This document shows, piece after piece, positions 5,210 through 40,590 of a stretch of DNA of 43,485 bases. The DNA comes from Chiloscyllium plagiosum (lineage: Eukaryota). A program made the translations under genes and the position numbers. The notes beneath the pieces were generated by a model. The model had not been told where the DNA came from. It worked only from the letters and a program-made list of their open reading frames with translations, and searched no databases. The DNA lies in NCBI RefSeq assembly GCF_004010195.1, contig NC_057759.1, positions 945,340 through 988,824 of the forward strand, read 5' to 3'. The first letter of the stretch is position 1; every line of letters begins with the position of its first letter.

Positions 5210-6094
5210 CAGCTGAACAGAGGTGCTCTTGTTTGTCGTTCACTGACAATGCCTTCTCGATCCCTCTGATAAGGGCATTCTCAATGGGAGTGTCTTTCAA
5301 CTTTGCCAGAAGTTGCTTCCGCCTCTGTAATCGAACCAACACCTGGATCGTAAGAAGTAGTTTCCTCAACTGCTTGAGTACCTCAAAGAATCTCCGTACC
5401 TTTGTAAATTGCATTTGGTGTTTTTGAAGGTGTTCCTCATGTACCACAACATCAGACAGCATTGCAGTGTGTCACGGTATGATTTGGGATCTCCAGTGGG
5501 CAGGTCTTATGTTAATCCTACGGACTGAGCGATAGCTTCTCCCTGAGGAACAAGGTAATCTACTCCCTCCCCTCTGTAAATCAGCATTCACCACAAATCT
5601 GCATTCGCTGTCCCCTCTTTCTGTCCCTAATCTGTCCCTGTCTCGATTCAATTCTCCTTTTCTATTTATGTTCAAAACAAACATTTGCTCCACCTTTTGT
5701 GTTGAATTGTTAAACATTTTGCTAATCTGTTCATCACTCTCTTTTCAACTTATCCATTTGGGTGTTACTTTAGCCAGGAGAAAGTGAGGTCTGCAAATGC
5801 TGGAGATCAGAGCTGAAAATGTGTTGCTGGAGAAGCGCAGCAGGCCAGACAGCATCCAGGGAACAGGAGAATTGACGTTTCGGGCATAAGCCCTTCTTCA
5901 GGAAGGGTTTATTCCCGAAACGTCGATTCTCCTGTTCCCTGGATGCTGTCTGGCTGCTGCGCTTCTCCAGCAATACATTTTCAGCTGTTACTTTAGCCCT
6001 CTGTTTTCTTTACTTGGGCAGTTTAACTGTTGACTGCACAGCAAGTCAATTTTCACCCTCATTTCCAGTGGTTGCATCTCCAGCTGGCTTGTTT
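5210..6094 (-). pseudogene. Decayed large coding exon of unknown gene, interrupted by a hammerhead element
   Basis: After removing the 5776-5985 insertion and one TSD copy, 662 nt lie between acceptor ctcttttatcAG and donor ctg|GTCATA. They read in one frame for 220 codons with only four stops (3 TGA, 1 TAA) and end in an amphipathic stretch VRRFFEVLKQLRKLLLTIQVLVRLQRRKQLLAKLK. Confidence 0.4.
5776..5985. mobile_element. Inverted-dimer PLE-derived short element with minimal hammerhead ribozyme; 13-bp TSD
   Basis: TGTTACTTTAGCC at 5763-5775 and 5986-5998; internal palindrome; minus-strand core CTGAAGA-A-GGGC-TTAT-GCCC-GAAACGTC at 5901-5874. Confidence 0.85.
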
Positions 6095-6134
6095 CTGATA
6101 AAAGAGTTGGGATGCTTTTGTGAACGAATAGGAC

Positions 6135-6269
6135 GTGTGAGAGAGAGGGTGTGCGAGAAAAAGTGGTGTGAGAAAGACCACAGACTTCTGAGAGAGGGTT
6201 TGTGTGTGTGGGTGTGAGATTGTGTGTGAGACTGTGCGTGTGTGAGACTGTTTCCGTGTGTGTGTGTGT

Positions 6270-6310
<41 letters not shown>

Positions 6311-7122
6311 TTTGTGGCAGAGTATGTATGTGTGTGAGAGAGTGTGTGAGACAGAATGTCTGTGTGAGAGTGTACATGAGACAGAAAGAGAGAGTTGGTG
6401 ACAGTAAGTGTGTGTGTGTGAGGGTGAGAGGGAGACTGTGGTTGGAGGAAAGAGTATGTGAGAGTACGTGTGTGTGAGAGAGAGAGAGGACGTGTGAGTG
6501 AGAGAGAAAGAATCTATGTGAACGTGTGACTGTGTGTGTGCATGGGTGAGCGATTGTGCGATAGAGATAGAGAGACTGTATGTGAGATGGGAGAGATAGT
6601 GAGTGAGAGACAGTATGTGTGAGTGTGAGAGAGTGTGGGTGAGAAACAGTGTGCGTGTGAGAGAGTGAGTGTGAGAGAATATGTGTGAGAGAGTGTATAT
6701 ATAAGAGAGTGTGTGTGAGAGCGTCTGTGTTTGTGTGGATGCGAGAGAGTATATGAGACAGAGTGTGTGTGTGTGAGAGAGTGTGTGACCAATGTGTGTG
6801 AGCGAGTGTATGAGACAAAGTTCGTGTGTGTTTGGGAGTATGTGTTAGACAGAGTGAGAGAGTGTGTTTCAGACAGTGTATGAGCGAGATTCAGTGCGAG
6901 AGAGAATGTCCGTGTGAAAGAGTGAGTGCATGTGAGACGCAGTGTGTGGCTATGTGAGAGTATGTGTGAGACAGAAAGAGATAGAGAGTTGATGAGAGTA
7001 AGTGTGTGTGCGTGTGCGGGTGAGAGGAAAGGTTTGGGAGAGAGGAAAATGTGTGTGAGTGAAAGAGACAGAGTTTGTGTGTGTGAGAGAGAGCGTGTGT
7101 GAGTGTGCAGTGTGTGTGAAGT
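6135..7122 (+). repeat. Degenerate (GT)n/(GA)n compound microsatellite
   Basis: About 1 kb of GT/GA dinucleotide mosaic; explains the His/Thr/Leu/Ser-rich spurious ORFs. Confidence 0.95.
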
Positions 7123-7134
7123 GTCATACATTTC

Positions 7135-7390
7135 TACAATATGGAAACAGTCCATCTGGGCCAACATATCAGTGGCGCTCAGTTTTCACAATTAATACTA
7201 ATCCCATGTGTTTGTATTTAATCCGTATCCTTCCATACCAATCCTATCCATGTATCTGCTTAGACGTTTCTGGAATTACAAAACTGTACTCGCTTCCTTC
7301 ACTACCTCGGGCAGCCTGTTCCAGACACTCAACACCCTTTGTGTAAAAAATTGCACCACAGGACTCTTTTGTATCTCTCCCCTCCCACTT
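7135..7390 (-). mobile_element. CR1 3' end fragment
   Basis: ATGGAAACAG...ATCCATGTATCTG...TTCACTACCTCGGGCAGCCTGTTCCAGACACTCAACACCC is the reverse of the CR1 W(N)xLP region and tail. Confidence 0.65.
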
Positions 7391-8329
7391 TGCTGAAACC
7401 CTCATAAACATGAAGCAGGTTTTGTAGATGTGCACTTGTGATAGCAAGGATATGTGCCAAGTGCTGGGGAAATGGGATTAGACAATAGTGAGGTGGTTAC
7501 TTTTGACCAAAGACACGATGCGCTGATGGACTTTTTTCCTGTGCTGTAGTCTTTTACAACTCCCTGCCATTGGCTCTTATCTGTCCTCTGGGGCAATTAT
7601 GAATGGGGGGAAATAAACGCTCACCCAGTCAGTGATGCCCACATCACATGAACGATTGTAATAAAAATTGTGATTTGTTTTAACATGAATTGAATTGAGT
7701 TGATGGCCACATTCTCGTGGTTACTAAGGATTTGGCCTTTGGAGTAATAGAGAAGGGAAAGCATAGAAGGAGGCCCTTCAGCTCAATGCCTCTGTGCCTG
7801 ACAGATCAATCTTGACTGATCGATCTCTGCTTTGACTCATCTGGGTGAGCTCCTCCCCTGAGAGTAATTGGTGTGCTGTAAAATATGTGAGCGACAGCTG
7901 GGCTAATCTGACCTCTAATGGCACTTTGTGATATGAGGCAGCTTGGTGTGGAAATGACGGTGGTTAATGTCACCAATCTCCTTCCCAGTCACGGGTTTAC
8001 CTGGTGGGTGTTGTGGGTGTGTGTACGCTAACCAGTCTGTGGTGTGTGATGCTACACAATGGAATTCCCATATTCTCTCCAAGGTGATGTGGAACAGGAA
8101 TGTCATTTCTGTGTCAAGCTACCTCACCTGGCTGCAACAAATTATAGACACATCACAAATAGGAGCAGGAATAGCCCCTTTCATCCTGCTCCCCTCCCAC
8201 CCCACATTCAACAGGCTCGAATCTGGGTCCCTGACGCTGTACGGTAGCAGTGCTAACCACTGAGCCACCATGCTGCCCACAAATAGAGGATAGAGTGGAG
8301 TGTAGGCCAAACGGGAGTGAGTAGAGCGG

Positions 8330-8995
8330 GGCTCAACAGAAATGGGAAGATGATAGAGATGGGGGGAGAGGAAATTGGAGAGGGCAATAGAGTGGGGGGG
8401 GGCAAGGTTCAGAGGATGGTTATTGAGGAGAAATGGGGGAGAAGATTAGAGTTGCGGGAGATTGAGGCGACATGGGGTGGGGAGCAATGGAGTTGGGGGG
8501 ATAGATTGGCCCCCTTCCCTGTTTCCTGTGCACCCCACTCTATCCCCCTCCCATGTTTGCCCTGCCACCGCCATATCCTCCTCCCCTGTTACCTGGTCCC
8601 CACTTTATTTCCCTCCACTGCTCCCCCTGTCTCCCTATTCTATCTCCCACCCCGTGTCCCCTGATCAGTCACTCTATACCCCTCCTACTTTCCCCTGCTC
8701 CCCACTCTATTCTGCTCCACTGTTTCCCCTGCCCCCACTCTATCCAATTTCAATGTTACCCCTGCCTCCCAGTCTATTCTCTCCCCTGTTTCTACTACCC
8801 CATCTATCCCCCTTTTGTTTCCCCTACCACTCCCACTCTATCCTCATCCCCATTCCCCCAGCCCCCACTCTATTCCCCTCCCCATTTCCTCTGCCCGCCT
8901 AACTCTTTGCCAGTTTTGTGTTTTCCATGCCCTCCCATTCCCCTCCACTCATTTCCTCTCTCCCCAAACTCTCCACCTTCTATCCCCCTTAAGCC
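8330..8995. repeat. Low-complexity purine-rich then pyrimidine-rich tract
   Basis: GGGGAG/ATAGAG-rich block followed by CCCC(A)CTCTAT-rich block of roughly complementary composition. Confidence 0.8.
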
Positions 8996-9269
8996 CACAT
9001 AGTATTGCAGAAAGATCACTTGACCTGAAACATTAACTCTGGTTTCTCTCCACAAATACGACCAGACCTGCTGAGCTTTCAAGCAATTGCAGGTTTTTAA
9101 TTTATGATTTACCACCTTCTCAATTCTTTTGATTTTCATTCTCTGATAACTATCTCGCATCTCATCAACAGGGTTCCATCAGCTTACCTCTATCTAATAA
9201 AGAAAATCTCCTAATATATTATGTACAGGATTTTGCTCATTACTGAATACAGACTCATTGCGTACAAAC

Positions 9270-9930
9270 GCAAATACCACTAAGGCAGATGCAGTTTAAA
9301 GTGGATCGACGTAAGCTTGGCCAATTGGGGAGCAAGAACACGAAGGTGGATTGCTTTCCGAATGGCGATGGATTGGGAAAAGAGAATTGAGGACTGGAAT
9401 TGGGATTTCATGTTAGGGCTGTTCAAGACATTGGCCAGTCCACGTTTCGAGTATTGCATACAATTCCTCTCGCCATGCTGTTATTAAATTGGAAAGGGTG
9501 CAGGAAAGTTTTACAAGGATGTTATCAAGGTTCGTGAGTCTTAATATTAAGGGGACGCTGGAGAGCCTGGGACGATTTCTTTTTCCTGGAGGGTCAGCGT
9601 CTGAGGAGTCGATCTATAGAGTTTTATACAATCATAAGGGGCATACATAAGGTCAAGGTCTTTATCCCAGGGTAGAAAAGTAGAAATGAGGGCATAGATT
9701 TTAGATGACAGTGGAGAGATGTAAAAGAGACCTGAGGGGCAATTTTCCATGCAGTAGTTGTTGCATACGTTGAAACAGCAGCTACAGGACAAGTACATGG
9801 ATAGGAAAGATTTCAACAGATATTGGCCAAGTGCACGAAAATGGGGCTGGTTCAGATTAGGAAGCCTGGTCAGCATGGATGAGTTTGGCTGAAGTGTCTG
9901 TTTCCCTGCTATATGACTCTATGACTCCAT
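9270..9930 (+). mobile_element. Degenerate CR1 LINE 3' fragment
   Basis: Decayed TL..PxFEYCIQ, LERVQ..FTRML and RGDL motifs; CTATGACTCTATGA tail. Confidence 0.75.
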
Positions 9931-10319
9931 GATTAGGGGCATGCATGCTGTCCTTGACAGCAATGCCCTACATCCTTTACCTGAATGAGGGACTGCAGTG
10001 TTTAAAACCTGTAACTCAGTCACTGTCTTTGCTCGCTCTAATGCTTAACAATTCATCGACATAGTCCTGCTGTTCCATTGAAAGAAAAATGGGATCTATT
10101 GACCAGAACCTTCTGCCCTCGCACTGTCGTTGTCCCTCATGATGTTTATCGGTTTGTAATCAGACCTGTACTGCTCGTTTCTTGATGGACAGCAGTTATC
10201 AGGTCAGTACGAGGGCGGTGTTAAAATATTACATCATCAACAAAGCCTGTATTTACTTCAATCAGAACCATTATTGGGTGCCGTAGCAGTATCCCTACCT
10301 CCAGACTGAGAGGCCAACA

Positions 10320-12580: not shown

Positions 12581-13593
12581 CTGAAAATGAAAGAGAAACA
12601 GATGAGAAAGAACTCTTTGCAGGCATTAGCGATTCGATCTGGTCCCTGGAGGGCTGATCAACACTAAAGACAGAGCTGCATCTTGTGAAATTGTAGCTGT
12701 GCTTTTGTCAATTTAAAAAAAAAACACTCAGTGCAATACTTTCTAAATTGTGTCCCTCTCAATCAATCCAGACATTTCAGAATATTGCATTTAGAAAAGT
12801 CGAAACTGTTGAAATCCAGCAATTGTTTTTCTGACCATTAAGACGGTGTATCAGTTTTTACGATGCTTGTCAGTGGAACATCTTCGACGGGCCGTCTTAA
12901 TCTCGTTAGTCTTTGCACCACTTGCTCAGTACTTGTTCATAAAAGACAGGAGTGAACTATTCGGGTTCCATACATTTGGGTTTTAACTGCTGTATGCTGC
13001 TAGTTCAGTGTGATTCAGCTGGCTGCATGGCTAGTTTTTGCAAAGCATTATATGTCAACCTTTGACATCAACATGGTTACAATTCCCACACCAGCTGAAG
13101 TTACCCTGAGGGACTTTCGTTCTGAACCTCTCCTCTCTCAACACGCACAATGACCTGCAAATTAATTTTGATGATCCTCCCACTTCTCTCTCTCTCTCCC
13201 TCTCTCTCTCTGTCTCTCGCTGTCGAATGAGAGGACAGGATAATGGCCTGGAAGAACATGACTTTTACTGCTCATCCCATGAGAAGCATTTGCATGATAA
13301 TTGTAAGCTCAACTTTCTGAACAACAATAAAATTGATGATGCTTTTATTTTCTTGGCTATCTCAAAACATTGAGTGGCAGTATTTGGCAAATTGGCCTTG
13401 AGTATTATGTAACAAAAACGGGACTTGCTTTCCACAGATCTCTCTCCACAGATGCTGCCAGACCTGCTGATTTTCTCCAGAAATGTCCGAATTTGTTTCA
13501 GATCTGCATCATCTGCAATTCTTAGTTTTATGTGAAACTGATCTGTATCTGCCTCAGAGAAGAATAATGTACGTGATGCACTGCCATTCTCAC

Positions 13594-15990: not shown

Positions 15991-16148
15991 TCACTACCTT
16001 CTGCACCCCTTCAGACACCGCAGCTCCATGGAAATCGGCCCCACCCGAGCCATCTGATGGCTTGGATGTTTATCCAGAATTTCTACTAGGTTACAGTGCA
16101 ATGTCACTGTGTGGGGCTCTTTAATCACACCGATACAATGGCACTCAC

Positions 16149-16222
16149 CAGCATTGTGTGCTGCTCCAACTACCGCATACTCCAGATTGCTAGCTGCTGC
16201 CCCTTCACCAGAAGGTTGGGAT
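16149..16222 (-). CDS. Duplicated cytoplasmic ITIM exon, copy 2 (RSQPSGEGAAASNLEYAVVGAAHNA)
   Basis: Acceptor cttcctttccttcccctttctactggaactAG, donor gctg|GTGAGT; 74 nt, phase 2 to 1; ITIM LEYAVV. Confidence 0.7.
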
Positions 16223-16424
16223 CTAGTTCCAGTAGAAAGGGGAAGGAAAGGAAGTCATCATTTCGAATGCAATGCTTTCAAAACCATGTTCAACTTCAAC
16301 AAAAAGGCAAAGCTATCACAGAAAGCACAAAACACATCGAGATCTGGTATTTCCTGGTCCTACGTCCCTGGTTTCCATCCGAACATCGAGTTTTCTCACC
16401 TTCAAGGAGCTGCTCAGTTCTCCA

Positions 16425-16595
16425 ACTTGTTTTCACTAATGTTCTTTGGAGAAGGAAATCCGCCTTCCTTACCTCGTCTGGGCCTTAATGTGACTGCATA
16501 CTCTGGTTAAATATAACTGCCCTCTGGGGCACTTAGGGATGGACAATAAATGCTGCCCCAGCCAGTGACAGCAACATCCCCATGAATGAAGAAAA
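16425..16595 (+). mobile_element. SacSINE1-like DeuSINE 3' half (second copy at 17143-17313)
   Basis: TTCACTAATGTTCTTTGGAGAAGGAAATCCGCC...AACTGCCCTCTG...CAATAAATGCTG...CATCCCATGAATGAA; same family as 10320-10650. Confidence 0.7.
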
Positions 16596-16772
16596 GTTGT
16601 CTGGGACCTTCCTGGAATATGGTTGCCTGGTTAGTCGATAAGACGCAAGTTAAAAGAATGCAGTCATATCCAAGCTCCCTCTATGTCTTATTCACTTCTG
16701 TCGTCTCTCCCTGATTGAGAAGAATCAGGATAAACAATTACAAAAATTACAACCGTCATTTCTGTCATTTAC

Positions 16773-16803
16773 CTCCTGGGCTGTGACTCAGTTGACGAAT
16801 TGA
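16773..16803 (-). CDS. Duplicated 31-nt cytoplasmic exon, copy 2 (VNSSTESQPR), weak acceptor
   Basis: Same as 17491-17521 except the first base. Donor ggag|GTAAAT is retained. The acceptor is junction-derived (gcactgtaacctAG) and lacks the original pyrimidine tract. Confidence 0.4.
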
Positions 16804-16866
16804 CTAGGTTACAGTGCAATGTCACTGTGTGGGGCTCTTTAATCACACCGATACAATGGCACTCAC

Positions 16867-16940
16867 CAGCATTGTGTGCTGCTCCAACTACCGCATACTC
16901 CAGATTGCTAGCTGCTGCCCCTTCACCAGAAGGTTGGGAT
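16867..16940 (-). CDS. Cytoplasmic ITIM exon, copy 1 (RSQPSGEGAAASNLEYAVVGAAHNA)
   Basis: Strong pyrimidine tract plus AG, donor GTGAGT; 74 nt, phase 2 to 1, matching the phase-2 end of the 31-nt exon. Confidence 0.75.
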
Positions 16941-17490
16941 CTAGTTCCAGTAGAAAGGGGAAGGAAAGGAAGTCATCATTTCGAATGCAATGCTTTCAAA
17001 ACCATGTTCAACTTCAACAAAAAGGCAAAGCTATCACAGAAAGCACAAAACACATCGAGATCTGGTATTTCCTGGTCCTACGTCCCTGGTTTCCATCCGA
17101 ACATCGAGTTTTCTCACCTTCAAGGAGCTGCTCAGTTCTCCAACTTGTTTTCACTAATGTTCTTTGGAGAAGGAAATCCGCCTTCCTTCCCTCGTCTGGG
17201 CCTTAGTGTGACTGCATACTCTGGTTAAATATAACTGCCCTCTGGGGCATTTAGGGATGGACAATAAATGCTGCCCCAGCCAGTGACAGCAACATCCCCA
17301 TGAATGAAGAAAAGTTGTCTGGGACCTTCCTGGAATATGGTTGCCTGGTTTGTCGATAAGACGCAAGTTAAAAGAATGCAGTCATATCCAAGCTCCCTCT
17401 ATGACTTATTCACTTCTGTCGTCTCTCCCTGATTGAGAAGAATCAGGATAAACAATTGCAAAAATTACAACCGTCATTTCTGTCATTTAC

Positions 17491-17675: not shown

Positions 17676-18075
17676 CATAGGGTTAGGGTGTTGGATAGGA
17701 TTAGGGTGAGGGCTAGGATTATGATGAAGCTTAAATTTAGTGCTAGTGTTTGGTTAAGGGTCATGGTTAGAGTTATGTTAAGAGTTAGCTTTAAGGTTAG
17801 AGTTATGGTTTGGATTAAGGTTAGGGTTAGAGACAGGATTAGGTTTAGGGTTAGGGCTAGGGCTAGAGTTAGGCTTAGGATTAGCGTTAGCTGTTTCGTT
17901 AGGACCAAAGTTAGAGTTAGGGTTAACGTTATGATGGAGTTACGTTGACGTTTACGGTCAAAGTTTGCGTTTGTGATGTGTTTGGGTTATGGTTAAGCTT
18001 AGTGTTAGAGTAAGGGTTAAGGTAAGGGTTTAGGGTTAGTCTTTGGACTTGGGTTCAGTTTATGATTGGGGGTAG
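17676..18075 (+). repeat. Degenerate interstitial telomere-like (TTAGGG)n hexamer array
   Basis: About 400 bp of GTTAGG/GCTAGG/GTTAGA/GTTATG hexamer variants, mostly in register. Confidence 0.85.
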
Positions 18076-18384
18076 GTCAGCCTGTCCAGTGAATACTGAA
18101 TACATTGAAGGAAGACATAAACAACGTTTTAATGAGTCATAGTTAAAAGAGAGTGAGGCAGGAAAGTGAAGTTGATCTCAAGACGTTGTCATTAACATGA
18201 GCTATTTAGGCCTTAGAAACTTTCTTTTTTTTTGGGAGGGGGGGGGGGTGTGTGTGGGGGGGGGGGGGGGGGGGGGGGGAGGCGGCTGTCACAGTTACCC
18301 GATCCAACAGGCTAACTTTGTGAGTGCTGTCCCTCCAGACTGTCAAGAACACGGTCTACTCCAGTTCCTGACCCTGACACTTTC

Positions 18385-18500
18385 CTCATTCCTGTAGAAG
18401 GGCTCATGCCCGAAAGGTCGATTCTCCTGACCTGCTGCGCTTTTCCAGCAATACATTTTCCGCTCTGATCTCCAGCATCTGCAGTCCTCACTTTCTCCAT
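18385..18500 (+). mobile_element. PLE-derived hammerhead short element (mutated core)
   Basis: CCTGTAGAAGGGCTCATGCCCGAAAGGTCGATTCTCCTG...GATCTCCAGCATCTGCAGTCCTCACTTTCTCC; same family as 5776-5985. Confidence 0.8.
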
Positions 18501-18713: not shown

Positions 18714-19509
18714 CTGGAACCCAACAAGAATTTTCGGCTCACGTTAACAAATTCACAAGGAAGTTTTTTTCACATTACCCCTGCGTCAGGTGCACAGTTA
18801 ACATCAGACTGACCAACCCCCCACAGATATGGAAGTGGGGGGTTCCATGGAAGTATCGAGAGTATCACAGTGTGGAGAATTCACCAATCCCACTTTCCCA
18901 TACTAACCCCACAAAGCCTTCAATGTTATGACATTTCAATTGCTGATCCAAGTACTGTTTAAAGGTTGGGAGTTTCCCTGCCAGCCAGTATGTTCCAACC
19001 TCCACCATCCTTTGGGTGGAACAATCCTCAATTTCCTGCTTTAAACCTCCCGTCCTTCACTTTATAATGGCCTCCCATCCCACCCTTGTAACTGATCCTT
19101 TGACTACGGGGAACACATGCTTCCTACTCCCCGGTCCCTTCCCCTCACATCTCCACCGGATTTCTCTCTCAGCATTTACTGTTTCATAGAAAATATCCCA
19201 AGATTATCCAGCCTCCCTCTCTTCCTCGTTAAAATCCAGAAAACGTCCTGGTAAATCTTCTCTGCACACTGCCTTCTCCATGGGGCGTGCAATTCCAGAT
19301 ATTTTTTGCATTCAAATTCCACCATCTGGTATGGGCGGGATCCCAGGAACACCACCCACCAACACTCTGGATCAATAACCTATGATAATACCACCCAGCT
19401 ATCACCTCCCCAATTGAGATGGTTAACAGTGTCTAATTGGTACAGACTGGATGGAGCGAATGGTCTTTCTCTGCGCTCTGTCTATGTTCGATCCGAGTGT
19501 CACTGTTAC

Positions 19510-19805
19510 CTCGCATCGTGAATTCGATGTAGTCGCTGGTCACATTAAAAATGGTGTTGTTTGTTCCTTTGTTGATTGCTGCACTGTGATACCTCCCGAC
19601 ATTGTCTCTCTGGAATGAATGAATAACCAGCTCACCACCATTGGCAGTCACATAGTAACCTGCACTGCCATTTCGTAGCAGCACGTTGTCACGGTACCAA
19701 GGGGTTCAGTGTCTTCCCTCACCCAACACCGGAGAACAAGGTGATTCCCGGACTGTATCTCAGTCCCATTAATGAAGTGAATCAGCACAGCATCTGTGAC
19801 AGGAA
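19510..19805 (-). pseudogene. Ig (C2/I-set, FcR-like/PECAM-like) domain exon with frameshift and second Cys>Ser
   Basis: Acceptor gttttctcctcAG, donor cgag|GTAACA. Translates xPVTDAVLIHFINGTEIQSGNHLVLRCWVREDTEP, frameshift near 19700, then WYRDNVLLRNGSAGYYVTANGGELVIHSFQRDNVGRYHSAAINKGTNNTIFNVTSDYIEFTMR. 296 nt is not divisible by 3, and YHS (agt) sits where YxC is expected. Confidence 0.85.
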
Positions 19806-20602
19806 CTGAGGAGAAAACACACCGTGATCAAAGAGCATGGAGTTTACCCATTGATTCAGATCGTCAGTGGGAATCAGTTTGACAATGATTTTCAAAGAGA
19901 GTTAGGGAATTCGATACATTCAGAAACTAATGCAATGGATGAGTGCGGTGGAAGTGGTTGAAGAGGGGACATGAACAACATTTAAAAGTCGCTTGGCCAA
20001 GTGCATGGATAGGAGTGGTTGAGAAGGATATTGGACGAAGTGCAGGGACATTGGGCTGTGCCATTTTTGTTTCAAAAACTGTGATGCTGGAAAAGCATAC
20101 ATAACATTCCTGATGTAGAGCTTATGCCCGAAACGTATCCAAACTGAATCTCAAAGGGTTAAACTTTCTGCAAACTGCAGAGGGTTAGCGCTAAGTCTGT
20201 GTGCTTGTCTCGCTTTCTCTCTCTCGTGCACGCACGCACACACACTCACAAACATTTTAGAAGATGACAACGAACAATAAAGACTAATTATTTCTGCAAA
20301 GCATTCTCGACATTCTAAAACTTGACAGTTCTGTTTTTAGTATCTATTTAAACAATCTCATTTAGGGTTCCATTAGGGTACTGTGAGAGTGAAATGGGGG
20401 AAGTCACATGACGATACAGACCAAGAGCAATCAAGGTATCATCTTACCTTGTGGGCCCATTGGTCTCAGGTCTCACCCTTAGGTGAAGCTCCTCTTTTCC
20501 AGTTTCATTCAAACGTAGCCCTTGTTGGAACCCTGCTCACAGCGTCAAATTATTAAAGTACAGATTTGAGACAGCCCAGGGAATCCCTTGTGGATTCAGA
20601 CC

Positions 20603-22239: not shown

Positions 22240-22400
22240 TATAGCCTTTCTCAGTTAAGGTTCGGTGATGGAGGAGGCCCAGGACCAACATGTCCTTGCA
22301 GGTATGCGAGGGGAGTTAAAGTGTTCAGCCACATGACAATGGGTTTGCTGGGTGCGGGTATCCCAGAGATATTCTCTGAAATGATCCACAAGTTGCTAAC
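22240..22400 (-). mobile_element. Penelope-like GIY-YIG endonuclease fragment
   Basis: Reverse strand reads QLVDHFREYLWDTRTQQTHCHVAEHFNSL..CKDMLVLGLLHHRTL, the PLE 'RFxEH...VAEHFN' pattern. Confidence 0.7.
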
Positions 22401-22409: not shown

Positions 22410-24850
22410 CAGTCTACCATGAGGAACCTTATCGAACCCCTCACTGAAGTCCATATAGAACACGTCCACCGCTCGTCCCTCATCAATCGTCCTTGTTAAT
22501 TCTTCAAACACCTCAATCAAATTCATGATACATGATTTCCCTGCATAAAGCAATGCTGACTATCAGTCATTGCCTTTCCAAATACGTGCAAATCCTGTCC
22601 CTTGGGATTCCCTCCAACCTACTCATCATCGTCAGGCTCGCTGATCTGTAGTTCCCATGCTTTTCCTTCCCACATTTCTTAGTGGCACCATGGTAGCTAA
22701 CCTCCAGTCTTTCAACACCTCACCTGTGCCTATCAATGATAAAAAATATCTCAGCAAGGGGCCCAGCAATCACTTCCGTTGCTTCCCACAGATTTATAAG
22801 GTACAGTTAATCAAGTCCTGATGATTTATGTACTTGTGTGTGTTTGAAGACATCCAGCACCGTCTCCTCTCTAATATGGACATTTTTCAAGATTTCACCA
22901 TCTATTTCCCCCACATTTTAGAACTTCCATGCCCTTCTCCAAAGTAAGCACTGACGCAAAATACTCGTTTAGTATCTCCCCCATCTCCTGCAGTTCCATA
23001 CGTGGGCTCCCTTGCTATTCTTTGAGGTGCCCTATTCTCTCCCTAGTTACCCTTTTGTCCTTAATGTATTTGTAAAAACCCTTCAGATACTCCTTAACCC
23101 TATTTACCAAAGCAATGTCCTGTTCCCTTTTTGTCTTCCTGATTTCCCTCTTAAGTATAGACTCCTACTACCTTTGTACTAAAGAGATTCATTCAATCTC
23201 TTCTGTCTATCCCTGTCATTTGCTTTTGTCTGTTTTTTAACCAAAACCTCAATCTTTCTAGTCACCCAGCATTCCTTTTACCTACTAACCTTTACCTTCA
23301 CCCGAACATAAATATACTGTCTTTGGACTCTCGTTATCTAATTTTTGAAGGCTTCACATTTTCCAGTCATCGCTTTACCTGCGAACATCTGTCACCAATC
23401 AGCTTTTGAAAGTTCTAGCCTAATACTGTCAAAATTAGACTTCCGCCAATTTTGAACTTCAACTTTTAGGTCAGAGAGTGTGGTGCTGGAAAAGCATAGC
23501 AGGTCAGGCAGCATCCGAGAAGCAGGAAAATCAACGTTTCCGACAAAAGCTCTTCATTGATTTTCCTGCTCCTCAGATGCTGCCTGACGTGCTGTGCTTT
23601 TCCACATCATGCTCTCTACTCTAATCTCCAGCATCTGCAGTACTCAAACCCTTAACACTACAGCAGTCCCAGTCTATGTTTGGAAAGTTACAATTCCCTA
23701 CCATAACCACCCTATTATTCTCACAGATAACTGAAAGCTCCTTATAAATTTCTTTCTTAATTTCTGGCTGACTATTTGGTGGTTTGTAATACAATCCCAG
23801 TAAGGTGATTATCCCTTTTATATTTCTCAGTTCCACCCAAATAACTTCCCTGGTTATATTCCCAAGAATATACTAAGTGCAGCAGTAATACCATCCCTTA
23901 TCAAAAACATCACTCCCAATCCTTTCTTGCCCCCTTTAATTTCTTGCTTCCTTGCTATAGCATTTATGAGTCCATCACCCCCTACATTTTCCAAACAGCA
24001 TACTCGTTTGAAATGGGGATAACCACAGAAGCCTCCTGCACTACCTGCCTACCTCTCCTACCTTTACTGGAGTTAACCCATCTATCTGACTCTATTTGCG
24101 GTTTTTCTCCTTTCTGATAACTGTCATCCGTCACACTCCCTACTCTGTGTTTGGAAAGTTAAAATCCCTAACCATAACCAGCTATTATTCTAATGGATAA
24201 CTGAAATCTCCTTACAAATTTGTTTCTCTATTTCCAATTGACTATTCAGTGATCTATAATACAATCGCAATAAGCTGATTATCTCTTTCTTATTTCTCAG
24301 TTCCACACAAATAACTTCCCTGGATGTATTCCTCATTGTAATATTCCTCTTGTAAATAACTCATTCCTCCAGCTGATCCATGTGATCCAGTAGGATTCAC
24401 AACCAAACACACTTACTGCAGACATAATCAACAGTAACATTGAAACTTTCCCTAAACTCCCTCATCTGACAAGAAGAGCATATTACTCTACGAAAGACCA
24501 TATTTCCTCCTCCACAATCTATAGAACCAGACAATAGCACCATTGCTTTGCTCTAAAAGCAAGTGCTCCAGGCTAACTTAGTACTTATGGTTCGCATTTT
24601 TTATATTTAATCAAAAGACAGATTTCAATAAAACATATAATCAAGAAAGAACCCACTCTCTGCACTACTGCAGACAATCAGCAAGGTTACACGTTAAAAA
24701 CTCACGGTTCCTGTGCTGCGATCTCTCCCACACAAGTTCCTCCAAAGATAGCTATGAATCTTGCTGTTTGTTACTTTTTCCTAGACACACTCTGATATCC
24801 AGTAACTGCAGATTCACTGCTGTGTCAGTTAGCAGTGTAGGTTTCTTTCT
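22410..24850 (-). mobile_element. Long internally deleted CR1/HER1 LINE (ORF1 zinc finger, EN, start of RT)
   Basis: Reverse strand: CSSCQMREFRESFNVTVDYVCSKC (~24410-24480), GLYYKPPNS...VMVGNCNFPNIDW (EN), IDEGRAVDVLYMDFSEGFDKVPHG (~22420-22490). The EN segment is also duplicated at 24147-24330. Confidence 0.85.
23472..23646. mobile_element. Inverted-dimer PLE-derived hammerhead element inserted in CR1
   Basis: GCTGGAAAAGCATAGCAGGTCAGGCAGCATCCGAG...GGAAAATCAACGTTTC followed by its reverse complement ending TCTCCAGCATCTGCAGTACTCA; the CTGA part of the core is lost. Confidence 0.8.
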
Positions 24851-25850: not shown

Positions 25851-26109
25851 GGTACTGGTCTTAAAACTATTTTCTTGCCTTTCCCCAGAACCATCCACTT
25901 CTTTGTTGTTCAAAAATCAGATGAACTCAGCCTTGACTATATTCAATGACCCCCGAACTGCAGGAAGACATCCCCACTTCTGAACTCCATTCCTCTTGCT
26001 AATATATCACTTGCCAATCTCAATGCTCGCTGCACCTGTCTGATAACTGACATTGACTGGTGTAGAAGGACACAGAGGCGCCTTTGTACATCCACACATC
26101 ATTCATAAT

Positions 26110-26505
26110 GAAAGGCTCAAGCCAGATACGTCATTTCTCCTGCTCCTTAGATGTTGCCTGACCTACTGTGCTTTTCCAACACCAAACTTTCTGACTCTGA
26201 TCTCCAGCATCTGCAGTTCTCACATTCTCTACATCACAATATAACCCTACTTAAACCATCTACCTCTTTTCTGCTCTTTTTTTTTCCAGCAAAGGCTATA
26301 ACTTCATAGAAAGGCTCAAGCCAGATACGTCATTTCTCCTGCTCCTTAGATGTTGCCTGACCTACTGTGCTTTTCCAACACCAAACTTTCTGACTCTGAT
26401 CTCCAGCATCTGCAGTCCTCACATTCTCTACATCACAATATAACCCCACTTAAACCATCTACCTCTTTTCTGCTCTTTTTTTTCAGCAAAGGCTATAACT
26501 TCATA
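26110..26505 (+). repeat. ~199-bp tandem duplication (26110-26308 / 26309-26505) carrying a degenerate hammerhead element
   Basis: Near-identical direct repeat; each unit holds GAAAGGCTCAAGCCAGATACGTC...GATCTCCAGCATCTGCAG. Confidence 0.9.
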
Positions 26506-28780: not shown

Positions 28781-28796
28781 TGGAACTGCTTAATTG

Positions 28797-29964: not shown

Positions 29965-30362
29965 CACAGTCTCAGATGGTGAGCGGGCTATCCCCAATGT
30001 GGACCCGTTCGTTCATTTGCAGGCTGGAGGAATCAAGTATTCCCTTCCCGCACTCAGGCAGGTGAACGGTTTCACTCTCGTGTGGACCCGCTGGTGTGTC
30101 CGCAAGTTGCCAATGAGACAGAATGCCTTTTTGCATTCAGGACAGGTGAATGACTGCTCCCTGGTGTGTTTGCAGGTTAACCAACCGACTGAATCCCTTC
30201 CCGCACTCTGAGCAGGTGAAAGGCTTCTCTTGCGTGTGGACCCGCTGGTGGGCCAGCACTGTAGATGACTCAGTGAACCCCCTCTCGCACACGGGGCATG
30301 TGAACGGCTTTTCTCCCATGTGAACCCGCTGGTGCCTTTGCAGATGTCCCATCTGACTGAAT
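29965..30362 (-). pseudogene. Tandem C2H2 zinc-finger gene 3' portion with two frameshifts
   Basis: [20 protein letters not shown]...[20 protein letters not shown]...; frameshifts near 30160 and 30056; last finger lacks its first His. The 5' part is in the gap. Confidence 0.85.
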
Positions 30363-30862
30363 NNNNNNNNNNNNNNNNNNNNNNNNNNNNNNNNNNNNNN
30401 NNNNNNNNNNNNNNNNNNNNNNNNNNNNNNNNNNNNNNNNNNNNNNNNNNNNNNNNNNNNNNNNNNNNNNNNNNNNNNNNNNNNNNNNNNNNNNNNNNNN
30501 NNNNNNNNNNNNNNNNNNNNNNNNNNNNNNNNNNNNNNNNNNNNNNNNNNNNNNNNNNNNNNNNNNNNNNNNNNNNNNNNNNNNNNNNNNNNNNNNNNNN
30601 NNNNNNNNNNNNNNNNNNNNNNNNNNNNNNNNNNNNNNNNNNNNNNNNNNNNNNNNNNNNNNNNNNNNNNNNNNNNNNNNNNNNNNNNNNNNNNNNNNNN
30701 NNNNNNNNNNNNNNNNNNNNNNNNNNNNNNNNNNNNNNNNNNNNNNNNNNNNNNNNNNNNNNNNNNNNNNNNNNNNNNNNNNNNNNNNNNNNNNNNNNNN
30801 NNNNNNNNNNNNNNNNNNNNNNNNNNNNNNNNNNNNNNNNNNNNNNNNNNNNNNNNNNNNNN
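30363..30862. other. Assembly gap (500 N)
   Basis: Run of N. Confidence 1.
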
Positions 30863-30864
30863 TG

Positions 30865-31450
30865 GAGCCACAGGAAACGCGATAAATCCTTAATGAGTAC
30901 TTTGTATCGGTATTTACTAAGGAGAATGACATGACTCATGTGAAGGTCAGGGATGACTGTGAATACTTTAAAGAATGTCAATACATTGAAGGAAGAATTT
31001 TCGGTATCCTAAATTGCATTAACGTAGACAGGTCCCCAGGACAAGATAAGATCTACTCCAGATTACTGTAAGAGGCAAGGGAAGAAATAGTTGGGGCAAT
31101 AGCAGTATTTTTCGCATCCTTATTGATTACAGGTAAGGTTCCAGAGGATTGGAGATTAACCAACGTTGTTTTCTTGTTTAAGAAAAGGAAGCAGGGATAA
31201 TCTAGAAAAATTATAGTCTGGCGATGCTGACGTCTGTGGTTGGGAAGCTCTTGGCGAGGATACAGCATCTGCAGTCATTGAAGATACAGAGGGACAAGGT
31301 ACTTGCACTTTTGGAAGAAAATTTATTTTTTAGTGACAGGCAGCATGGTTTTGTAAAGGGAAGACCATGTCTCACAAACCTATCGAATGTTTGAAGAGGT
31401 GACGAGGATTATTGATGAGGGCAGACATGCAAATGTGGTCAACTACGGAT
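30865..31450 (+). mobile_element. Degenerate CR1 ORF2 fragment (pre-RT to RT start)
   Basis: VDRSPGQDKIYSRLL, TGKVPEDWRLTNVVFLFKK and QHGFVKGRPCLTNL motifs. Confidence 0.8.
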
Positions 31451-34529: not shown

Positions 34530-35580
34530 TGGGGATGTTTGCCAAATTTTAGGGAGCGATTAAATAGAGTGAGGGAGTTGGTATTTAAAAGTAGCAAAGC
34601 ACATGATGAAACAGGAAGAAGACTAAAAAAAATTGCAACTTTGCCAATAGAGATAAAAATGTTTGTGTTACTTCCAGTGATAGGCGAACCATGAAAAAAA
34701 TAATTAAGTGGGCCCTTGCAAGTCGAAAGTAGATTAAATGAGGTGAATTATTTGATAAGAACACCAGAAAGAAAAAAGTCACACAGAGTGTATCATGGAA
34801 ATATGCTCCAAACTTACTTTGACAGGGAAAGAAAGCAATAGGAGGGTTTGTTATTGGTTATAGCAGAGAGCAAAGAATCAAGTTCCGAGGATTCTTATTT
34901 GGACACTCCTCAATTTAAAGTGGACAATGAGGAAGTTCTCAAAAATTGGATAAATTATTGAGTTACCTTTCATAGGAAAATCGAAATGAGCTGAAAGAGT
35001 TATAACTACTGCATCGGAAGGTTTTTGGAATAAGCTATGGAATACCAATCTAATTATGCATGATGCAGATATGAGTAATGGTTTTCCAGTTAGCAATATC
35101 TTGAAATACATGACCTACTAAAGGGCACCGGTACAAAAAGAATTTGACATAATGGAAGCATGTTACAGTGATTAGAGCTCACTGGTAGTAATGATGACAA
35201 AACCACTTTGTTACCAACTGTAAATTGTGGACTATCACAAATTCAACGCACTTACAAAGTCTGATTCATACCCGATTCCACGTTTGAAGACTGTATTGAG
35301 AAGGTGTAGCAAGGAGCTTATATTTCTAAGATGGAAATGTGTTGCTGGAAAAGCGCAGCAGGTCAGGCAGCATCTAGGGAACAGGAGAATCGACGTTTCG
35401 GGCATTAGCCCTTCTTCAGGAATTCCATCCTGAAGACCCATTAAACGTCTTGGAGAAATTTAAGGACAAAAATTCCAGACTTTTTCGATGGAGCTTATTA
35501 TTGCAGCCTTTTAATTTGAAATTTGTACTTGTGACAGGACAACAAAACATAATTGGTGACGCACTATTGAGACGTTGATG
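34530..35580 (+). mobile_element. Gmr1-type Gypsy LTR retrotransposon pol relic (INT, RT, RNase H order)
   Basis: Integrase C-terminus SGPLQVESRLNEVNYLIRTPERKKSHRVYHGNML (~34715-34810), RT N-terminus DYHKFNALTKSDSYPIPR (35230), RNase H end RLFRWSLLLQPFNL...NIIGDALLR stop (35578). Confidence 0.85.
35334..35424 (-). mobile_element. PLE-derived short element with intact minimal hammerhead core
   Basis: Minus-strand CTGAAGA-A-GGGC-TAAT-GCCC-GAAACGTC at 35419-35392. Confidence 0.85.
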
Positions 35581-35745
35581 AAAAAAGATGGAGGCGTTTC
35601 GTGGCAAGAATAAACAGATTGAAATAGAATGCAGTAGTGAATGTTTGCACTCTTCGGGGCAAAGAAATAAGTACGTATTTTAGCAAACACGTCGAGTAAG
35701 ACAGTGGGGTTTAAAAACGAGGCTATCCCTACATATTGATGATTC

Positions 35746-36956
35746 AAGAGAAGTGATTGCTGGGCCTCTTGCTGAGATATTTGTATCATCAATAGTCACA
35801 GGTGAGGTGCCAGAAGACTGGAGGTTGGCAAACGTGGTGCCACTTTGTAAGAAGGGTGGTAAAGACAAACCAGGGAACTATAGACCGGTGAGCCTGACCT
35901 CAATGGTGGGCAAGTTGTTGGAGGGAATCCTGAGGGACAGGATGTACATGTATTTGGAAAGGCAAGGACTGATTAGGGATAGTCAACATGGATTTGTGCG
36001 TGGAAATCATGTCTCACAAACTTGATTGAGTTTTTTGAGCAAATAACAAAGAAGATTGATGAGGGCAGAGCAGGAGATGTGATCTATGTGGACTTCAGTA
36101 AGGCGTTCGACAAGATTCCCGATGAGAGACTGATTAGCAAGGTTAGATCTCATGGAATACAGGGAGAACTAGTCATTTGGATACAGAACTGGCTCAACGG
36201 TAGAAGACAGCGGGTGTTGTTGGAGGGTTATTTTTCAGACTGGAGGCTTGTGACCAGTGGAGTGCCACAAGGTTCGGTGTTGGGCCCTCTACTTTTTGTC
36301 ATTTACATAAATGATTTGGATGCGAGCACAAGAGGTACAGTTAGAAAGTTTGCAGATGACGCCAAAATTGGAGGTGTCATGGACAGCGAAGAGGGTTACC
36401 TCAGATTACAACAGGATCTAGACCAGATGGGCCAATGGGCTGAGAAGTGGCAGATGGAGTTTAATTCAGATAAATGCGAGATGCTGCATTTTGGGAGGGT
36501 TGGAGGATTTGCGCTACAGGGAGAGGCTGAACAGACTGGGGCTGTTTTCCCTGGAGCGTCGGAGGCTGAGAGGTCACCTTATATTGATTTACAAAATTAT
36601 GAGGGGCATGGATAGGATAAATAGGCAAAGTTTTTTCCCTGGGGTTGGAGAGTCCAGAACTTGAGGGCATAGGTTTAGGGTGAGAGGGGAAATATATAAA
36701 AGAGACCTAAGGGGCAACTTTTTCACGCAGAGGGTGGTACGTGTATGGAATGAGTTGCCAGAGGATGTGGTGGAGGCTGGTACAATTGCAACATTTAAGA
36801 GGCATTTGGGTGGGTATATGAATACGAAGGGTTTGGAGGGATATGGGCCGGGTGCTGGCAGGTGGGGCTAGATTGGGTTGGGATATCTGGTCGGCTTGGA
36901 CGGGTTGGACTGAAGGGTCTGTTTCCATGCTGTACATCTGACTCTATGATTCTATG
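35746..36956 (+). mobile_element. Young 5'-truncated CR1/HER1 LINE (RT domain and 3' tail) with internal deletion
   Basis: GNYRPVSLTS, YVDFSKAFDKI, SGVPQGSVLGPLLFVIYINDL, KFADD; deletion near 36496 relative to the copy at 40590; CTATGATTCTATG tail. Confidence 0.95.
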
Positions 36957-39900
36957 TGACGATGTTGTCATTTTGAAAAGGGCATTTTTGTCTTAGCTTT
37001 AACTGAAGAGAGGTTTAAAACAAAGGTGTAGAACAATCTACTTGAAGATGACTTAAGTAAACAGCTTGTAAGGCCTTCTTGCTGTTTTTGAGGTTGGAAC
37101 AATTGAAGCAACCTCTCACAGCTCCATATTTCTGGGTTTTGTTTCTTTGTTTCAGTGACGTCAGAAGTCTTTGCAGACTCAAAAGGGTTGGACTCATTTT
37201 AGCTAGATGTTTCTTCCTTCCAGATTGGAGAACTGCACGTGAAAGTTTGTGTCTGAGTGTAACTTTTTGCCAAAGAATGTTTTCTGGAATGTTGCTATGT
37301 TTGTACAGTTAATTCGTAATAGGTACTGCATGGTTTGTTCAGTTATTTTTTTTCAATGGATAAGTCATTCTAAATATTCTCTTTCCTTTGCTTGTACTTT
37401 AACTATAGTGTTTAAATAAATTGTGTTTTGCTTAATGTCGAAAAGTTGGACCAGTTACATCACATTGGGAACACGCATTTCACATCTACATTTAAAATAA
37501 TTTTAAAAATCTATGATACTTTCTTAAATATTTTGAGGGGGTCTGGTCTAGTCCCTAAAACTGAGGGATAAAAAGTAGTGTGAAAACTATTGGGATTAAA
37601 GACTAATTATTTGAATCCATTATGAAGCAATTAATAACAAGATATTTGCAAAGATAAACCACAATCGATCAGAGTCACCATGGTTTTATAAAGGATGAAT
37701 CATGTCTGAAGTATTTGTTCGAGTCGATTAAAGATGCTACATGCCAAGTGAATAATGGGGTTCCTGCAGAAGTAATACATCTGGACTTCAAAACAAAATT
37801 GAATAATGTGCTGCACAAAAGATTTATCCCCAATATGGGGTTAGAAGTAATTGATCAGCTTAGATAGAGGATTGGTGAGCCAACAAAATACAGCAAGATG
37901 GAATAGTTAGACAGTTTTATGGTTAGCAACGTATGAGTGACAGAGTTTGCAATGTATTGTATTACATGAATGAGGGGATAGAAAATACTGCAGCCAAAAG
38001 GACAGATGACAGTAAAATAGCTGGTAAAATCTATATCAATGACGTGGAGTGATGGAACAGATGTATTGCAACTAATTTGGCGACGCTTCTACGTTAAGCA
38101 GGAATTTAAGTCAAGAATAGAAGGTGCAGAACATGCAAATGGACATAGTCAGGTAAAGTCATAACATAGAACACAGAACATAGAACATACAGCGCAGTAC
38201 AAAGTATTAGGCCCTCGATGTCGTGCTGACCTGAGAAACAAACCTGAAGCCCATCTAACTCCACGATTATGTTATCATCCCTATTTTTATCCAATGACCA
38301 CTGAAATGCCTTTAATGCTAGTGTGCCCACTACTGTTGCAGGTAAGATATTCCACAGCCTTTGAGTAAAGAACCTCATTTAAGAGGCATTTGGATGGGTA
38401 TATGAATACGAAGGGTTTGGAGGGATATGGGCCGGGTGCTGGCAGGTGGGACAATATTGGGTTGGGATATCTGGTCGGCATGGACGGGTTGGACTGAAAG
38501 GTCTGTTTCCATGCTGTACATCTCTCTGACTCTATGATTCTATGTGACGATGTTGTCATTTTGAAAAGGGCATTTTTGTCTTAGTTTTAACTGAAGAGAG
38601 GTTTAAAACAGAGGTGTAGAACTATCTACTTGAAGATGACTTAAGTAAACAGCTTGTAAGGCCTTCTTGCTGTTTTTGATTTTGGAACAATTGAAGCAAT
38701 CTCTCACAGCTCCATATTTCTGGGTTTTGTTTCTTTGTTTCAGTAACGTCAGCAGTCTTTGCAGACTCAATAGGGTTGGACGCATTTTAGTAAATGTTTC
38801 TTCCTTCCAGATTGGAGAACTGCACGTGAAGGTTTATGTCTGAGTGTAACTTTTTGCCAAAGAATGTTTTCTAGAATGTTGCTATGTTTGTACAGTTAAT
38901 TCGTAATAGGTACTGCATGGTTTGTTCAGTTATTTTTTTCAATGGATAAGTCATTCTAAAAATTATCTTTCCTTTGCTTGTACTTTACCTATAGTGTTTA
39001 AATAAATTGTGTTTTGCTTAATGTCAAAAGTTGGGCCAGTTACATCACATTGGGAACACGCATTTCACATCTACATTTAAAAGAATTAAAAAATTCTATG
39101 ATACTTTCTTAAATATTTTGAGGGGGTCTGGTCTAGTTCCTAAAACTGAGGGATAAAGAGTAGTGTGAAAACTATTGGGATTGAAGACTAATTATTTGAA
39201 TCCATTTTGAAGCAATTAATAACAAGATATTTGCAAAGATAAACCACAATCGATCAGAGTCACCATGGTTTTATAAAGGATGAATCATGTCTGAAGTATT
39301 TGTTCGAGTCGATTAAAGATGCTACATGCCAAGTGCATAATGGGGGTCCTGCAGAAGTAATACATCTGGACTTCAAAACAAAATTGAATAATATGCTGCA
39401 CAAAAGATTTATCCCCAATATGGGGTTAGAAGTAATTGATCAGCTTAGATAGAGGATTGGTGAGCCAACAAAATACAGCAAGATGGAATAGTTAGACAGT
39501 TTTGTGGTTAGCAACGTATGAGTGACAGAGTTTCAAGCCCCCAGTATTTGCAATGTATTGTATTACATGAATGAGGGGTAGAAAATACTGCAACCAAAAG
39601 GACAGATGACAGTAAAATAGCTGGTAAAATCTATATCAATGACGTGGAGTGATGGAACAGATGTATTGCAACTAATTTGGTGACGCTTCTACGTTAAGCA
39701 GGAATTTAAGTCAAGAATAGAAGGTGCAGAACATGCAAATGGACATAGTCAGGTAAAGTCATAACATAGAACACAGAACATAGAACATACAGCGCAGTAC
39801 AAAGTATTAGGCCCTCGATGTCGTGCTGACCTGAGAAACAAACCTGAAGCCCATCTAACTCCACGATTATGTTATCATCCCTATTTTTATCCAATGACCA

Positions 39901-39975
39901 CTGAAATGCCTTTAATGCTAGTGTGTCCACTACTGTTGCAGGAACGATATTCCACACCCTTTGAGTAAAGAACCT
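36792..39975. repeat. ~1.6-kb tandem duplication (36792-38375 / 38376-39975)
   Basis: Both copies start CATTTAAGAGGCATTTGG and end GAGTAAAGAACCT; scattered substitutions and a short indel near 39535-39550. Confidence 0.95.
36955..37560 (+). mobile_element. LTR, probable 3' LTR of the Gmr1-like element (duplicate copy at ~38543-39145)
   Basis: Starts TGTGACGATG, has AATAAA near 37415, ends GAGGGGGTCTGGTCTAGTCCCTAAAA (decayed terminus); follows the RNase H stop once the CR1 insertion is removed. Confidence 0.6.
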
Positions 39976-40590
39976 ACCTCTGACATGTGTCCTATATGTA
40001 TCAAGCCACAATTTAGAACTATGTACCTTCACGCTAGCCATCACGATCAGGGGAAATTGGCTCTCACTATGCACAGAGTTGAAAAGTGTGGTGTTTCAAA
40101 AACACAGCAGACCAGGCAGCATCCGAGGAGCAGAGAATCGACATTTCGGGCATAAGCCCTTCTTCAGGAATGCACTATGCACACCTTCGAATCCTCTGAT
40201 CATCGTGGATGCGCCTGTTAAGTCAGCACTTAAACGTATTCTCTCCAACGAAAACAGCCTCAGGTCTCTCAACAATTCCTCATAAGACCGTCCTTCCATA
40301 TTAGACATAAATTTAAGGTGAAGGTTGGAAGGTATAGGGGGGATATCAGGGGTAGGTTCTTTACCCAGAGAGTGGTGGGGGCCTGTGGGAGTGGCAGAGT
40401 CAAAATCATTGGTGGCCTTTAAGCAGCAATTGGATAGGTACATGGATAGGTGCTTAAGCTAGGACAAATGTTCGGCATAACATCGTGGACCGAAGGGCCT
40501 GTTCTGAGCTGTATTGTTCTATGTTCTGTGTTCTATGTTCTAGGCAACATCCTGGTAAATCTCCAATACACCCTTTCCAATGCTTCCACA
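39770..40590 (-). mobile_element. CR1 3' fragment hosting a hammerhead element and an oppositely oriented CR1 tail (40300-40540, +)
   Basis: Reverse strand MEGRSYEELLRDLRLFSLERIRLSADL and RGRFFTQRVWN; resumes at 40541 (TAGGCAACATCCTGGTAAAT). Confidence 0.75.
40076..40172 (-). mobile_element. 97-bp PLE-derived hammerhead element with 11-bp TSD
   Basis: CACTATGCACA at 40065-40075 and 40173-40183; minus-strand core CTGAAGA-A-GGGC-TTAT-GCCC-GAAATGTC at 40167-40140. Confidence 0.85.

Follow-up and report, generated by a model that had tools for sequence, protein, structure and literature searches.

Minimal hammerhead motifs in a carpet-shark genomic segment probably mark 5'-truncated ends of a Penelope-like element

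Minimal hammerhead ribozymes (min-HHRs) were described in the terminal repeats of metazoan Penelope-like elements (PLEs) by Cervera and De la Pena in 2014 (PMC4209133). They occur genome-wide mostly as single motifs, which were ascribed to truncated PLEs and are weakly active as dimers, and thousands are present per genome in fishes, coelacanth and frog (PMC4209133). Insertions of endonuclease-positive PLEs show 5' truncation, an inverted 5'-truncated copy and a one-sided “tail” of 30-40 bp (PMC8557442, PMC3846280). Retrozymes, another group of hammerhead-bearing elements, consist of two or more units in a row, all of them with complete hammerheads (PMC7229834; bioRxiv 10.64898/2026.07.22.740005). 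Here we analyzed a 43,485-nt stretch of the genome of the carpet shark Chiloscyllium plagiosum (contig NC_057759.1, positions 945,340 to 988,824; hereafter the window), in which eight loci carry a short repeat with a minimal hammerhead motif. These repeats are probably heavily 5'-truncated 3' ends of a Neptune-type PLE. The copies are likely dead, and the motif, judged from its sequence, is likely the ordinary one of the terminal repeat of the element, carried along without a role at these sites.

The eight related loci listed in an original prediction, made from the sequence of the window, were all recovered by blastn and alignment (Table 1), which corresponds to one locus per 5 kb over about 42 kb. 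A 28-nt core pattern searched with up to three mismatches gave five matches in the window, and matches were obtained in 0 of 100 shuffled sequences. The other three loci (23472-23646, 26100-26231 and 26303-26430) were recognised by their tail, their cores having decayed with three to five catalytic positions changed. When the window was scanned generically, requiring CTGANGA, GAAA and a stem of 4 bp or more, the three best copies alone were picked up. All 12 catalytic positions are kept in copies 1, 7 and 8, and one to five of them are changed at the remaining five loci. For copies 7 and 8 the predicted state of the motif was confirmed: the core of copy 7 is intact, and copy 8 has one change in helix III with intact catalytic positions. 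Copy 7 (35419-35392) is the only one that keeps the core, the ACGU palindrome, stem II and both stem I pairs. Copy 1, also predicted to be intact (5901-5874), is so in its 28-nt core but not in the first stem I pair, which is lost through an A for G at 5873, and its core is buried in a long hairpin formed by its own two arms (-158 kcal/mol, z -21.7).

Table 1. Coordinates in the window of the hammerhead-bearing copies, core pattern matches, PLE protein relics and assembly gaps.
Feature	Position	Strand	Remarks
Copy 1, head-to-head insertion	5776-5985		both arms
Copy 1, long arm	5904 to 5776	-	core and 98-nt tail
Copy 1, short arm	5902 to 5985	+	begins at G8, stops 61 nt past the cleavage site
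Copy 1, core	5874-5901	-	stem II and helix III palindrome intact; sequestered in hairpin
Copy 1, target-site duplication	5763-5775 and 5986-5998		13 bp
Copy 2, long-tail	18377-18498	+	18-nt deletion; A6 and helix III changed
Copy 3, remnant	20080-20137	+	about 17 nt of inverted tail (20080-20097), then core (20110-20137)
Copy 4, older head-to-head insertion	23472-23646		short arm on -, dead core; long arm on +
Copy 5, long-tail	26100-26231	+	core dead: C3, G5 and A14 changed
Copy 6	26303-26430	+	local 199-bp duplication of copy 5 and its 3' flank; identical dead core
Copy 7, short-tail	35335-35423	-	sits within another repeat
Copy 8, short-tail	40076-40172	-	one helix III change
Copy 8, target duplication	40065-40075 and 40173-40183		11 bp
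Pattern match	5874-5901	-	0 mismatches
Pattern match	35392-35419	-	0 mismatches
Pattern match	40140-40167	-	1 mismatch
Pattern match	18392-18419	+	2 mismatches
Pattern match	20110-20137	+	3 mismatches
PLE reverse transcriptase C-terminus/thumb relic	1850-2177	+	frameshifted, runs into gap 2180-2715
Weak GIY-YIG C-terminal relic	~22255-22392	-	frameshifted, fused to a LINE reverse transcriptase fragment
Assembly gaps	2180-2715, 30363-30862

The motif has the type I order, the conserved core CUGANGA / GAAA / UH, the G10.1-C11.1 pair, one unpaired base between A9 and stem II and palindromic helix III positions, all as in min-HHRs; its stem I is short too, though less clearly a match. This supports, at the level of sequence, the proposal that it is the minimal type I hammerhead of PLEs, whose helix III has shrunk to the palindrome ACGU; no assignment to a named PLE family follows, the parent open reading frame (ORF) being missing. 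Stem II comprises 4 bp and is the sole helix in the centroid fold of copy 7; stem I has two pairs followed by a mismatch and is broken in copy 1. The Schistosoma families, in contrast, have 7-8 bp in stem II and 4-5 in stem I, and a variant of D. virilis also has a 2-bp helix I (PMC4209133). The palindrome is present in copies 1, 3, 4, 5, 6 and 7, where its duplex is predicted at just -3.1 kcal/mol. An unconstrained two-strand fold of copy 7 did not produce a hammerhead dimer, and folds of single copies were not more stable than shuffles (z 0.07 to 0.96, with one at -0.36). Scanning the window with Rfam returned no hammerhead match at E<=1, likely due to the absence of helix III and of most of stem I. 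The scan gave five microRNA (miRNA) matches on the two hairpins of copies 1 and 4, with 25-35 bits against gathering thresholds of 60-104; being far under these thresholds, they were discarded as chance artefacts.

A core no better conserved than the tail was named in the original prediction as speaking against it, and this is what the window shows. Relative to the majority sequence of six arms (copy 6, copy 3 and two arms without the 5' core being excluded), mismatches fell on 8 of 72 catalytic positions and on 34 of 293 tail positions (Fisher p=1.0), so that the copies look like neutrally decaying insertions. Equal decay is expected of dead copies and says nothing against the motif in the source element.

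The anatomy of the copies is that of PLE insertions. They have two kinds of 3' end, separated by about 35 nt: a short one 57-64 nt past the cleavage site (short arm of copy 1, copies 7 and 8, and similarly the short arm of copy 4) and a long one at about 89-98 nt (long arms of copies 1 and 4, copies 2, 5 and 6). The predicted common tail of ~90 nt describes the long class, but not a single length for the family, and the copy at 20080 lacks a sense tail altogether; in its core, A9 and a base of stem II are altered. In copies 1 and 4, a short and a long arm meet head to head with their tails outward, which fits the one-sided tail and inverted 5'-truncated copy of PLEs. Truncation at the 5' side next to an inverted copy is seen in both and, as a remnant, in copy 3. 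The arms of copy 1 overlap by 3 nt (5902-5904). Counted over nine arms (copy 6 being excluded as a duplicate), five 5' ends lie 3-5 nt before the core, one lies 15 nt before it (copy 2) and three lie inside the core; the long arm of copy 4 begins about 2 nt ahead of the cleavage site. Copies 5 and 6, predicted at 26110 and 26309, are indeed related, but not as two separate insertions: one decayed copy was duplicated together with about 70 nt of flank, at 99% identity. 

Target duplications of 13 and 11 bp surround copies 1 and 8, lengths reached by about 0.6% and 1.2% of random flank pairs, respectively. Flank words of 4-6 nt at copies 2-7 were rejected as target duplications, since they are at chance level. 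Copy 7 is flanked by a 6-7-bp inverted repeat (35329-35337 / 35421-35429) with AAT at both junctions and no target duplication, as if the insertion had hit the middle of a short palindrome; ATT is the preference of the PLE studied in vitro (PMC11167929). In 5844-5985, the two arms of copy 1 have several substitutions in common that are absent from the other copies, reflecting either one variant template or homogenisation between the arms. 

Compared with described PLE insertions, the shark copies thus agree in the two 3' ends about 35 nt apart, the one-sided tail on head-to-head arms, the short junction overlap and the occurrence of 11-13-bp target duplications at only some of the copies. A further likeness is an ATG-started frame that runs off the tail in copies 1 and 7, comparable to the Pen2a repeat of A. 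vaga, which holds the first codons of the ORF. They differ in that truncation is extreme, leaving 90-210 bp, and no ORF-linked copy was seen.

A mechanism for the formation of these copies can be proposed from a PLE studied in vitro, whose protein cuts both strands of the DNA and also extends them. Reverse transcription of that PLE begins at two internal positions of the RNA, which bound the “tail”, and uncleaved RNA is used; its hammerhead cleaves only with the protein, and cleavage is dispensable for insertion (PMC11167929). By analogy, a GIY-YIG endonuclease would nick genomic DNA, and the reverse transcriptase (RT) would begin to copy the RNA of the element at either of two sites some 35 nt from each other. 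Priming at either site would yield the two classes of 3' ends, a fit that the copies show. Synthesis would usually stop early, most often just past the hammerhead, leaving stubs of 90-135 bp. The template would be uncleaved RNA, since most copies contain the core. Where both DNA ends prime, the two complementary DNAs would join head to head via a few common bases, 3 nt in the case of copy 1. The outcome would be a hairpin that bears the tail on one of its arms (as seen in copies 1 and 4) and lies between target duplications (as seen in copies 1 and 8). An alternative origin of such inversions, self-priming, has likewise been put forward (PMC3846280). Once inserted, core and tail would decay at the same rate, as seen in the window. 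For the motif of the source element, cleavage after GUC would require dimer formation via the ACGU palindrome or assistance from a protein, as published for other PLEs.

We then considered the family beyond the window. Contig sets from three sequencing runs were aligned to copy 7 at 82% likeness, yielding 43,659, 78,646 and 4,295 matching contigs. The flanks of the element, repeats in their own right, had a summed contig depth about three orders of magnitude below that of the element. Contig counts and summed depth are not copy numbers, but they show a very large family, and the predicted high copy number is borne out by the first two runs. The number of copies looks above the 4,000-9,000 reported for min-HHRs (PMC4209133). 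Depth falls from tail to core, a trend confounded by private changes of the reference and unusable as a truncation profile. One raw RNA run aligned to copy 7 yielded 0 reads, which says nothing about expression. Contigs with loose ends at the 5' junction (545, 410 and 106 in the three sets, with agreement of 0.37, 0.55 and 0.41) start with the same letters in all three sets, indicating that some copies run into a common upstream sequence while others stop at the junction. The first 11 letters of the consensus of these loose ends are present without change in copy 2, among the 15 nt that it has upstream of its core, and a longer template therefore exists. On the 3' side, at least three variants of the long tail appear as continuations of loose ends. 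In several single contigs, the 5' end of the element (35422-35423) is joined to 35378-35390, 1-13 nt past the cleavage site, the strand not being stated; three single contigs have the joint at 35389-35390, beside the cleavage site. Such joints may represent hairpins in which the cut is where the second arm begins.

The same core was found in other animals. A looser core pattern led us to fetch 122 loci, nearly all on metagenome contigs and apparently from animal host DNA. The shark tail matched in none of the 122, the shark-specific pattern had no match in metagenome contigs, the upstream-plus-core motif had none in viral contigs, and plasmids gave no match. The core itself occurred once in a viral contig (L001:5001-5028) and once in a bacterial genome bin (L122:3854-3880); the bacterial-bin occurrence looks like those of the animal families and may stem from contamination by the host. 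Over 67 distinct flank combinations, whose relatedness was uncontrolled, stem I pairs 1, 2 and 3 were paired in 61, 60 and 46 cases, against shuffle maxima of 52, 42 and 44, so that two to three stem I pairs covary in the families of other animals.

At four of the 122 loci (L002, which also has an RT, L045, L052 and L057), the core lies downstream of a GIY-YIG-bearing ORF on the same strand. The ORF of L002 encodes an RT, a cysteine linker and a GIY-YIG domain (Pfam E 5e-5 and 0.001, both under the curated cut-offs) in the layout inverted repeat, ORF, repeat, the repeat lying 87 nt past the ORF and its inverted copy upstream. The whole unit (L002:1005-3663), a PLE with a 595-codon RT-linker-GIY-YIG frame and with inverted terminal repeats that each contain a hammerhead, is a convenient reference for this type of core. 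In the four GIY-linked families, core-bearing copies ended within 40 nt upstream of the core in 16 of 30, 12 of 15, 17 of 22 and 1 of 2 cases, and 10, 2, 2 and 1 copies ran more than 100 nt upstream (self and contig-limited rows were dropped; subfamilies may be mixed). Hairpins of 191 bp at L008 and L021 share 85-87% identity with the ends of the GIY-linked L045. Together, the stubs and hairpins of these families indicate that short stubs and mini-hairpins are a normal output of coding PLEs with this core.

PLE protein relics are present in the window (Table 1), as originally predicted, namely RT/thumb and GIY-YIG fragments, but no link of either to a hammerhead copy was found. The RT/thumb relic is 82% identical to a protein of Chiloscyllium punctatum and 75% to one of Stegostoma tigrinum, and is of Penelope/Poseidon type by these closest proteins, which lack the cysteine linker; with L002 it is 37% alike over 40 residues. 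The GIY-YIG relic (pairwise E 0.004, profile E 0.023) is closest to Neptune-type PLE proteins, the type of L002, and no hammerhead lies downstream of it. These relics show that PLEs are present in the genome, not which PLE made the stubs.

Several observations weigh against the repeats being truncated ends of a Neptune-type PLE. Within the window, no hammerhead copy continues into coding sequence, and neither there nor in protein searches did the shark parent ORF come to light. Protein searches with the GIY-YIG relic as the query gave no match, and neither did a search with the ATG-started frame of the tail taken as the N-terminus of the parent ORF; out of 1.8 billion representatives, P0004 alone was hit, and it was rejected as a repeat protein that is unrelated. 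Six of the eight loci showed no target duplication above chance. The upstream extension is seen over about 20 nt only, with modest agreement, and need not lead to an ORF. The comparison families come from other animals, were picked by the exact core pattern and possibly mix subfamilies. The label Neptune-type is no more than probable, being taken from a zinc-finger linker that was recognised by eye, and not by a tree, in L002, L045 and L057. Finally, the 5' ends are tightly clustered, more so than in the comparison families, which would equally fit a short dedicated template.

This last point leads to the strongest rival, a non-autonomous PLE derivative whose RNA of 100-140 nt would start a few nucleotides upstream of the hammerhead, be made from short master copies and be inserted in trans by PLE protein. 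We regard it as unlikely, though to be taken seriously. Its best argument is that five of nine arms begin within the same 3-5 nt. Copy 8 forms a complete 97-bp unit between its duplications, copies are very numerous, and the substitutions common to the arms of copy 1 would be explained by a variant template. For PLEs, the terminal repeats are enough to allow mobilisation in trans (PMC3846280), and derivatives that are non-autonomous have been described (PMC8557442; bioRxiv 10.64898/2026.07.22.740005). Against it stand the longer template seen in contig loose ends and copy 2, a 5' end that is not fixed (the four arms beginning elsewhere, three inside the core and one at 15 nt upstream), and the families with coding parents, which yield the same stubs and hairpins. 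The sequence ahead of the core also contains no promoter or tRNA-like head. In the present data, a long RNA with a strong stop and a short RNA with its own start would look the same. The original prediction of a non-coding, ribozyme-bearing element mobilised in trans by PLEs was thus right about the high copy number, and is disfavoured as to an element of its own and its trans mobilisation by the PLE insertion anatomy, the longer template and the stubs of coding parents.

A more elaborate version would give the ribozyme a part. In the carpet shark, a 100-140-nt hammerhead-headed RNA would have split from its PLE parent and become a non-autonomous element of very high copy number. Its 5' boundary would be set by the hammerhead fold, and self-cleaved RNA would be the template of some second arms. 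The latter is suggested by the start of the long arm of copy 4, 2 nt from the cleavage site, and by the contig joints at 35389-35390. We hold this scenario to be doubtful; if it were true, the genome would be a large fossil record of ribozyme cut and RT stop sites in vivo.

Much less probable is a retrozyme without long terminal repeats (LTRs), in which tandem hammerhead units would self-cleave to monomers, circularise and be reverse-transcribed from circles. The copies resemble such elements in being short, non-coding and PLE-related with a type I hammerhead, and retrozymes have been reported in one cartilaginous fish (bioRxiv 10.64898/2026.07.22.740005). Two contigs of one run carry a second copy after the first, across a gap of unstated size, and the window holds one tandem pair at 199-bp spacing. 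This pair was rejected as a retrozyme dimer, both of its cores being dead; it includes about 70 nt of flank and was therefore duplicated after decay. Seven of the eight loci are single or head-to-head, unlike head-to-tail arrays with intact cores. The copies begin before the core and their ends follow PLE integration, not monomers cut at the cleavage site. Described retrozymes form head-to-tail arrays with canonical type I hammerheads (PMC7229834), in contrast to the minimal motif seen here and its stem I of 2 bp. It is least probable of all that some copies are ribozymes or hairpin RNAs adopted by the host, or that the hairpins are DNA transposons akin to miniature inverted-repeat transposable elements: copy 7 is intact and copies 1 and 4 fold into long hairpins with weak miRNA-model scores, but the core has no excess conservation, those scores are far under threshold, no host gene was identified around the copies within the window, and the hairpin arms are unequal with centres differing between copies 1 and 4, unlike terminal inverted repeats.

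The surrounding DNA of the window is of animal type, rich in fragments of long interspersed elements (LINEs) and microsatellites. LINE RT fragments lie at 35684-36615, 40559-41118 and 42159-42947, and an integrase zinc-binding fragment of an LTR retroelement at 43108-43470(+). Decayed tails of a sister family, without a recognisable core, were found at 4329-4392(+), 9045-9128(+) and 13440-13530(+), with 67-73% likeness among themselves or to the main family. A degenerate telomere-like array (17680-18075, +) lies about 300 bp upstream of copy 2. A frameshifted C2H2 zinc-finger array flanks the second assembly gap on both sides (30016-30361 and 30863-31008, both on the - strand). A 90-codon frame at 19436-19705(-) resembles by eye an immunoglobulin-domain exon, and Pfam gave only a weak unrelated match. 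Local duplications at 16085-17102 and 36937-39874, with spacings of 718 bp and about 1.6 kb and 96-100% identity, are either recent events or assembly artefacts.

This kind of sequence has been known since 2014, and the shark repeats likely represent one more family of a described motif, not a new type of mobile element. No shark family appears in the examined text of PMC4209133, and we found no description of the present one in the literature, Repbase, Dfam and supplements lying outside the search. The family can be used for annotating shark repeats, and it is a warning that such stubs score as miRNA hairpins. Cleavage was dispensable for insertion in vitro (PMC11167929). For what PLE hammerheads do in vivo, junction statistics would be useful: tens of thousands of junctions from this one family could show whether the RT stops at the fold or at the cut site.

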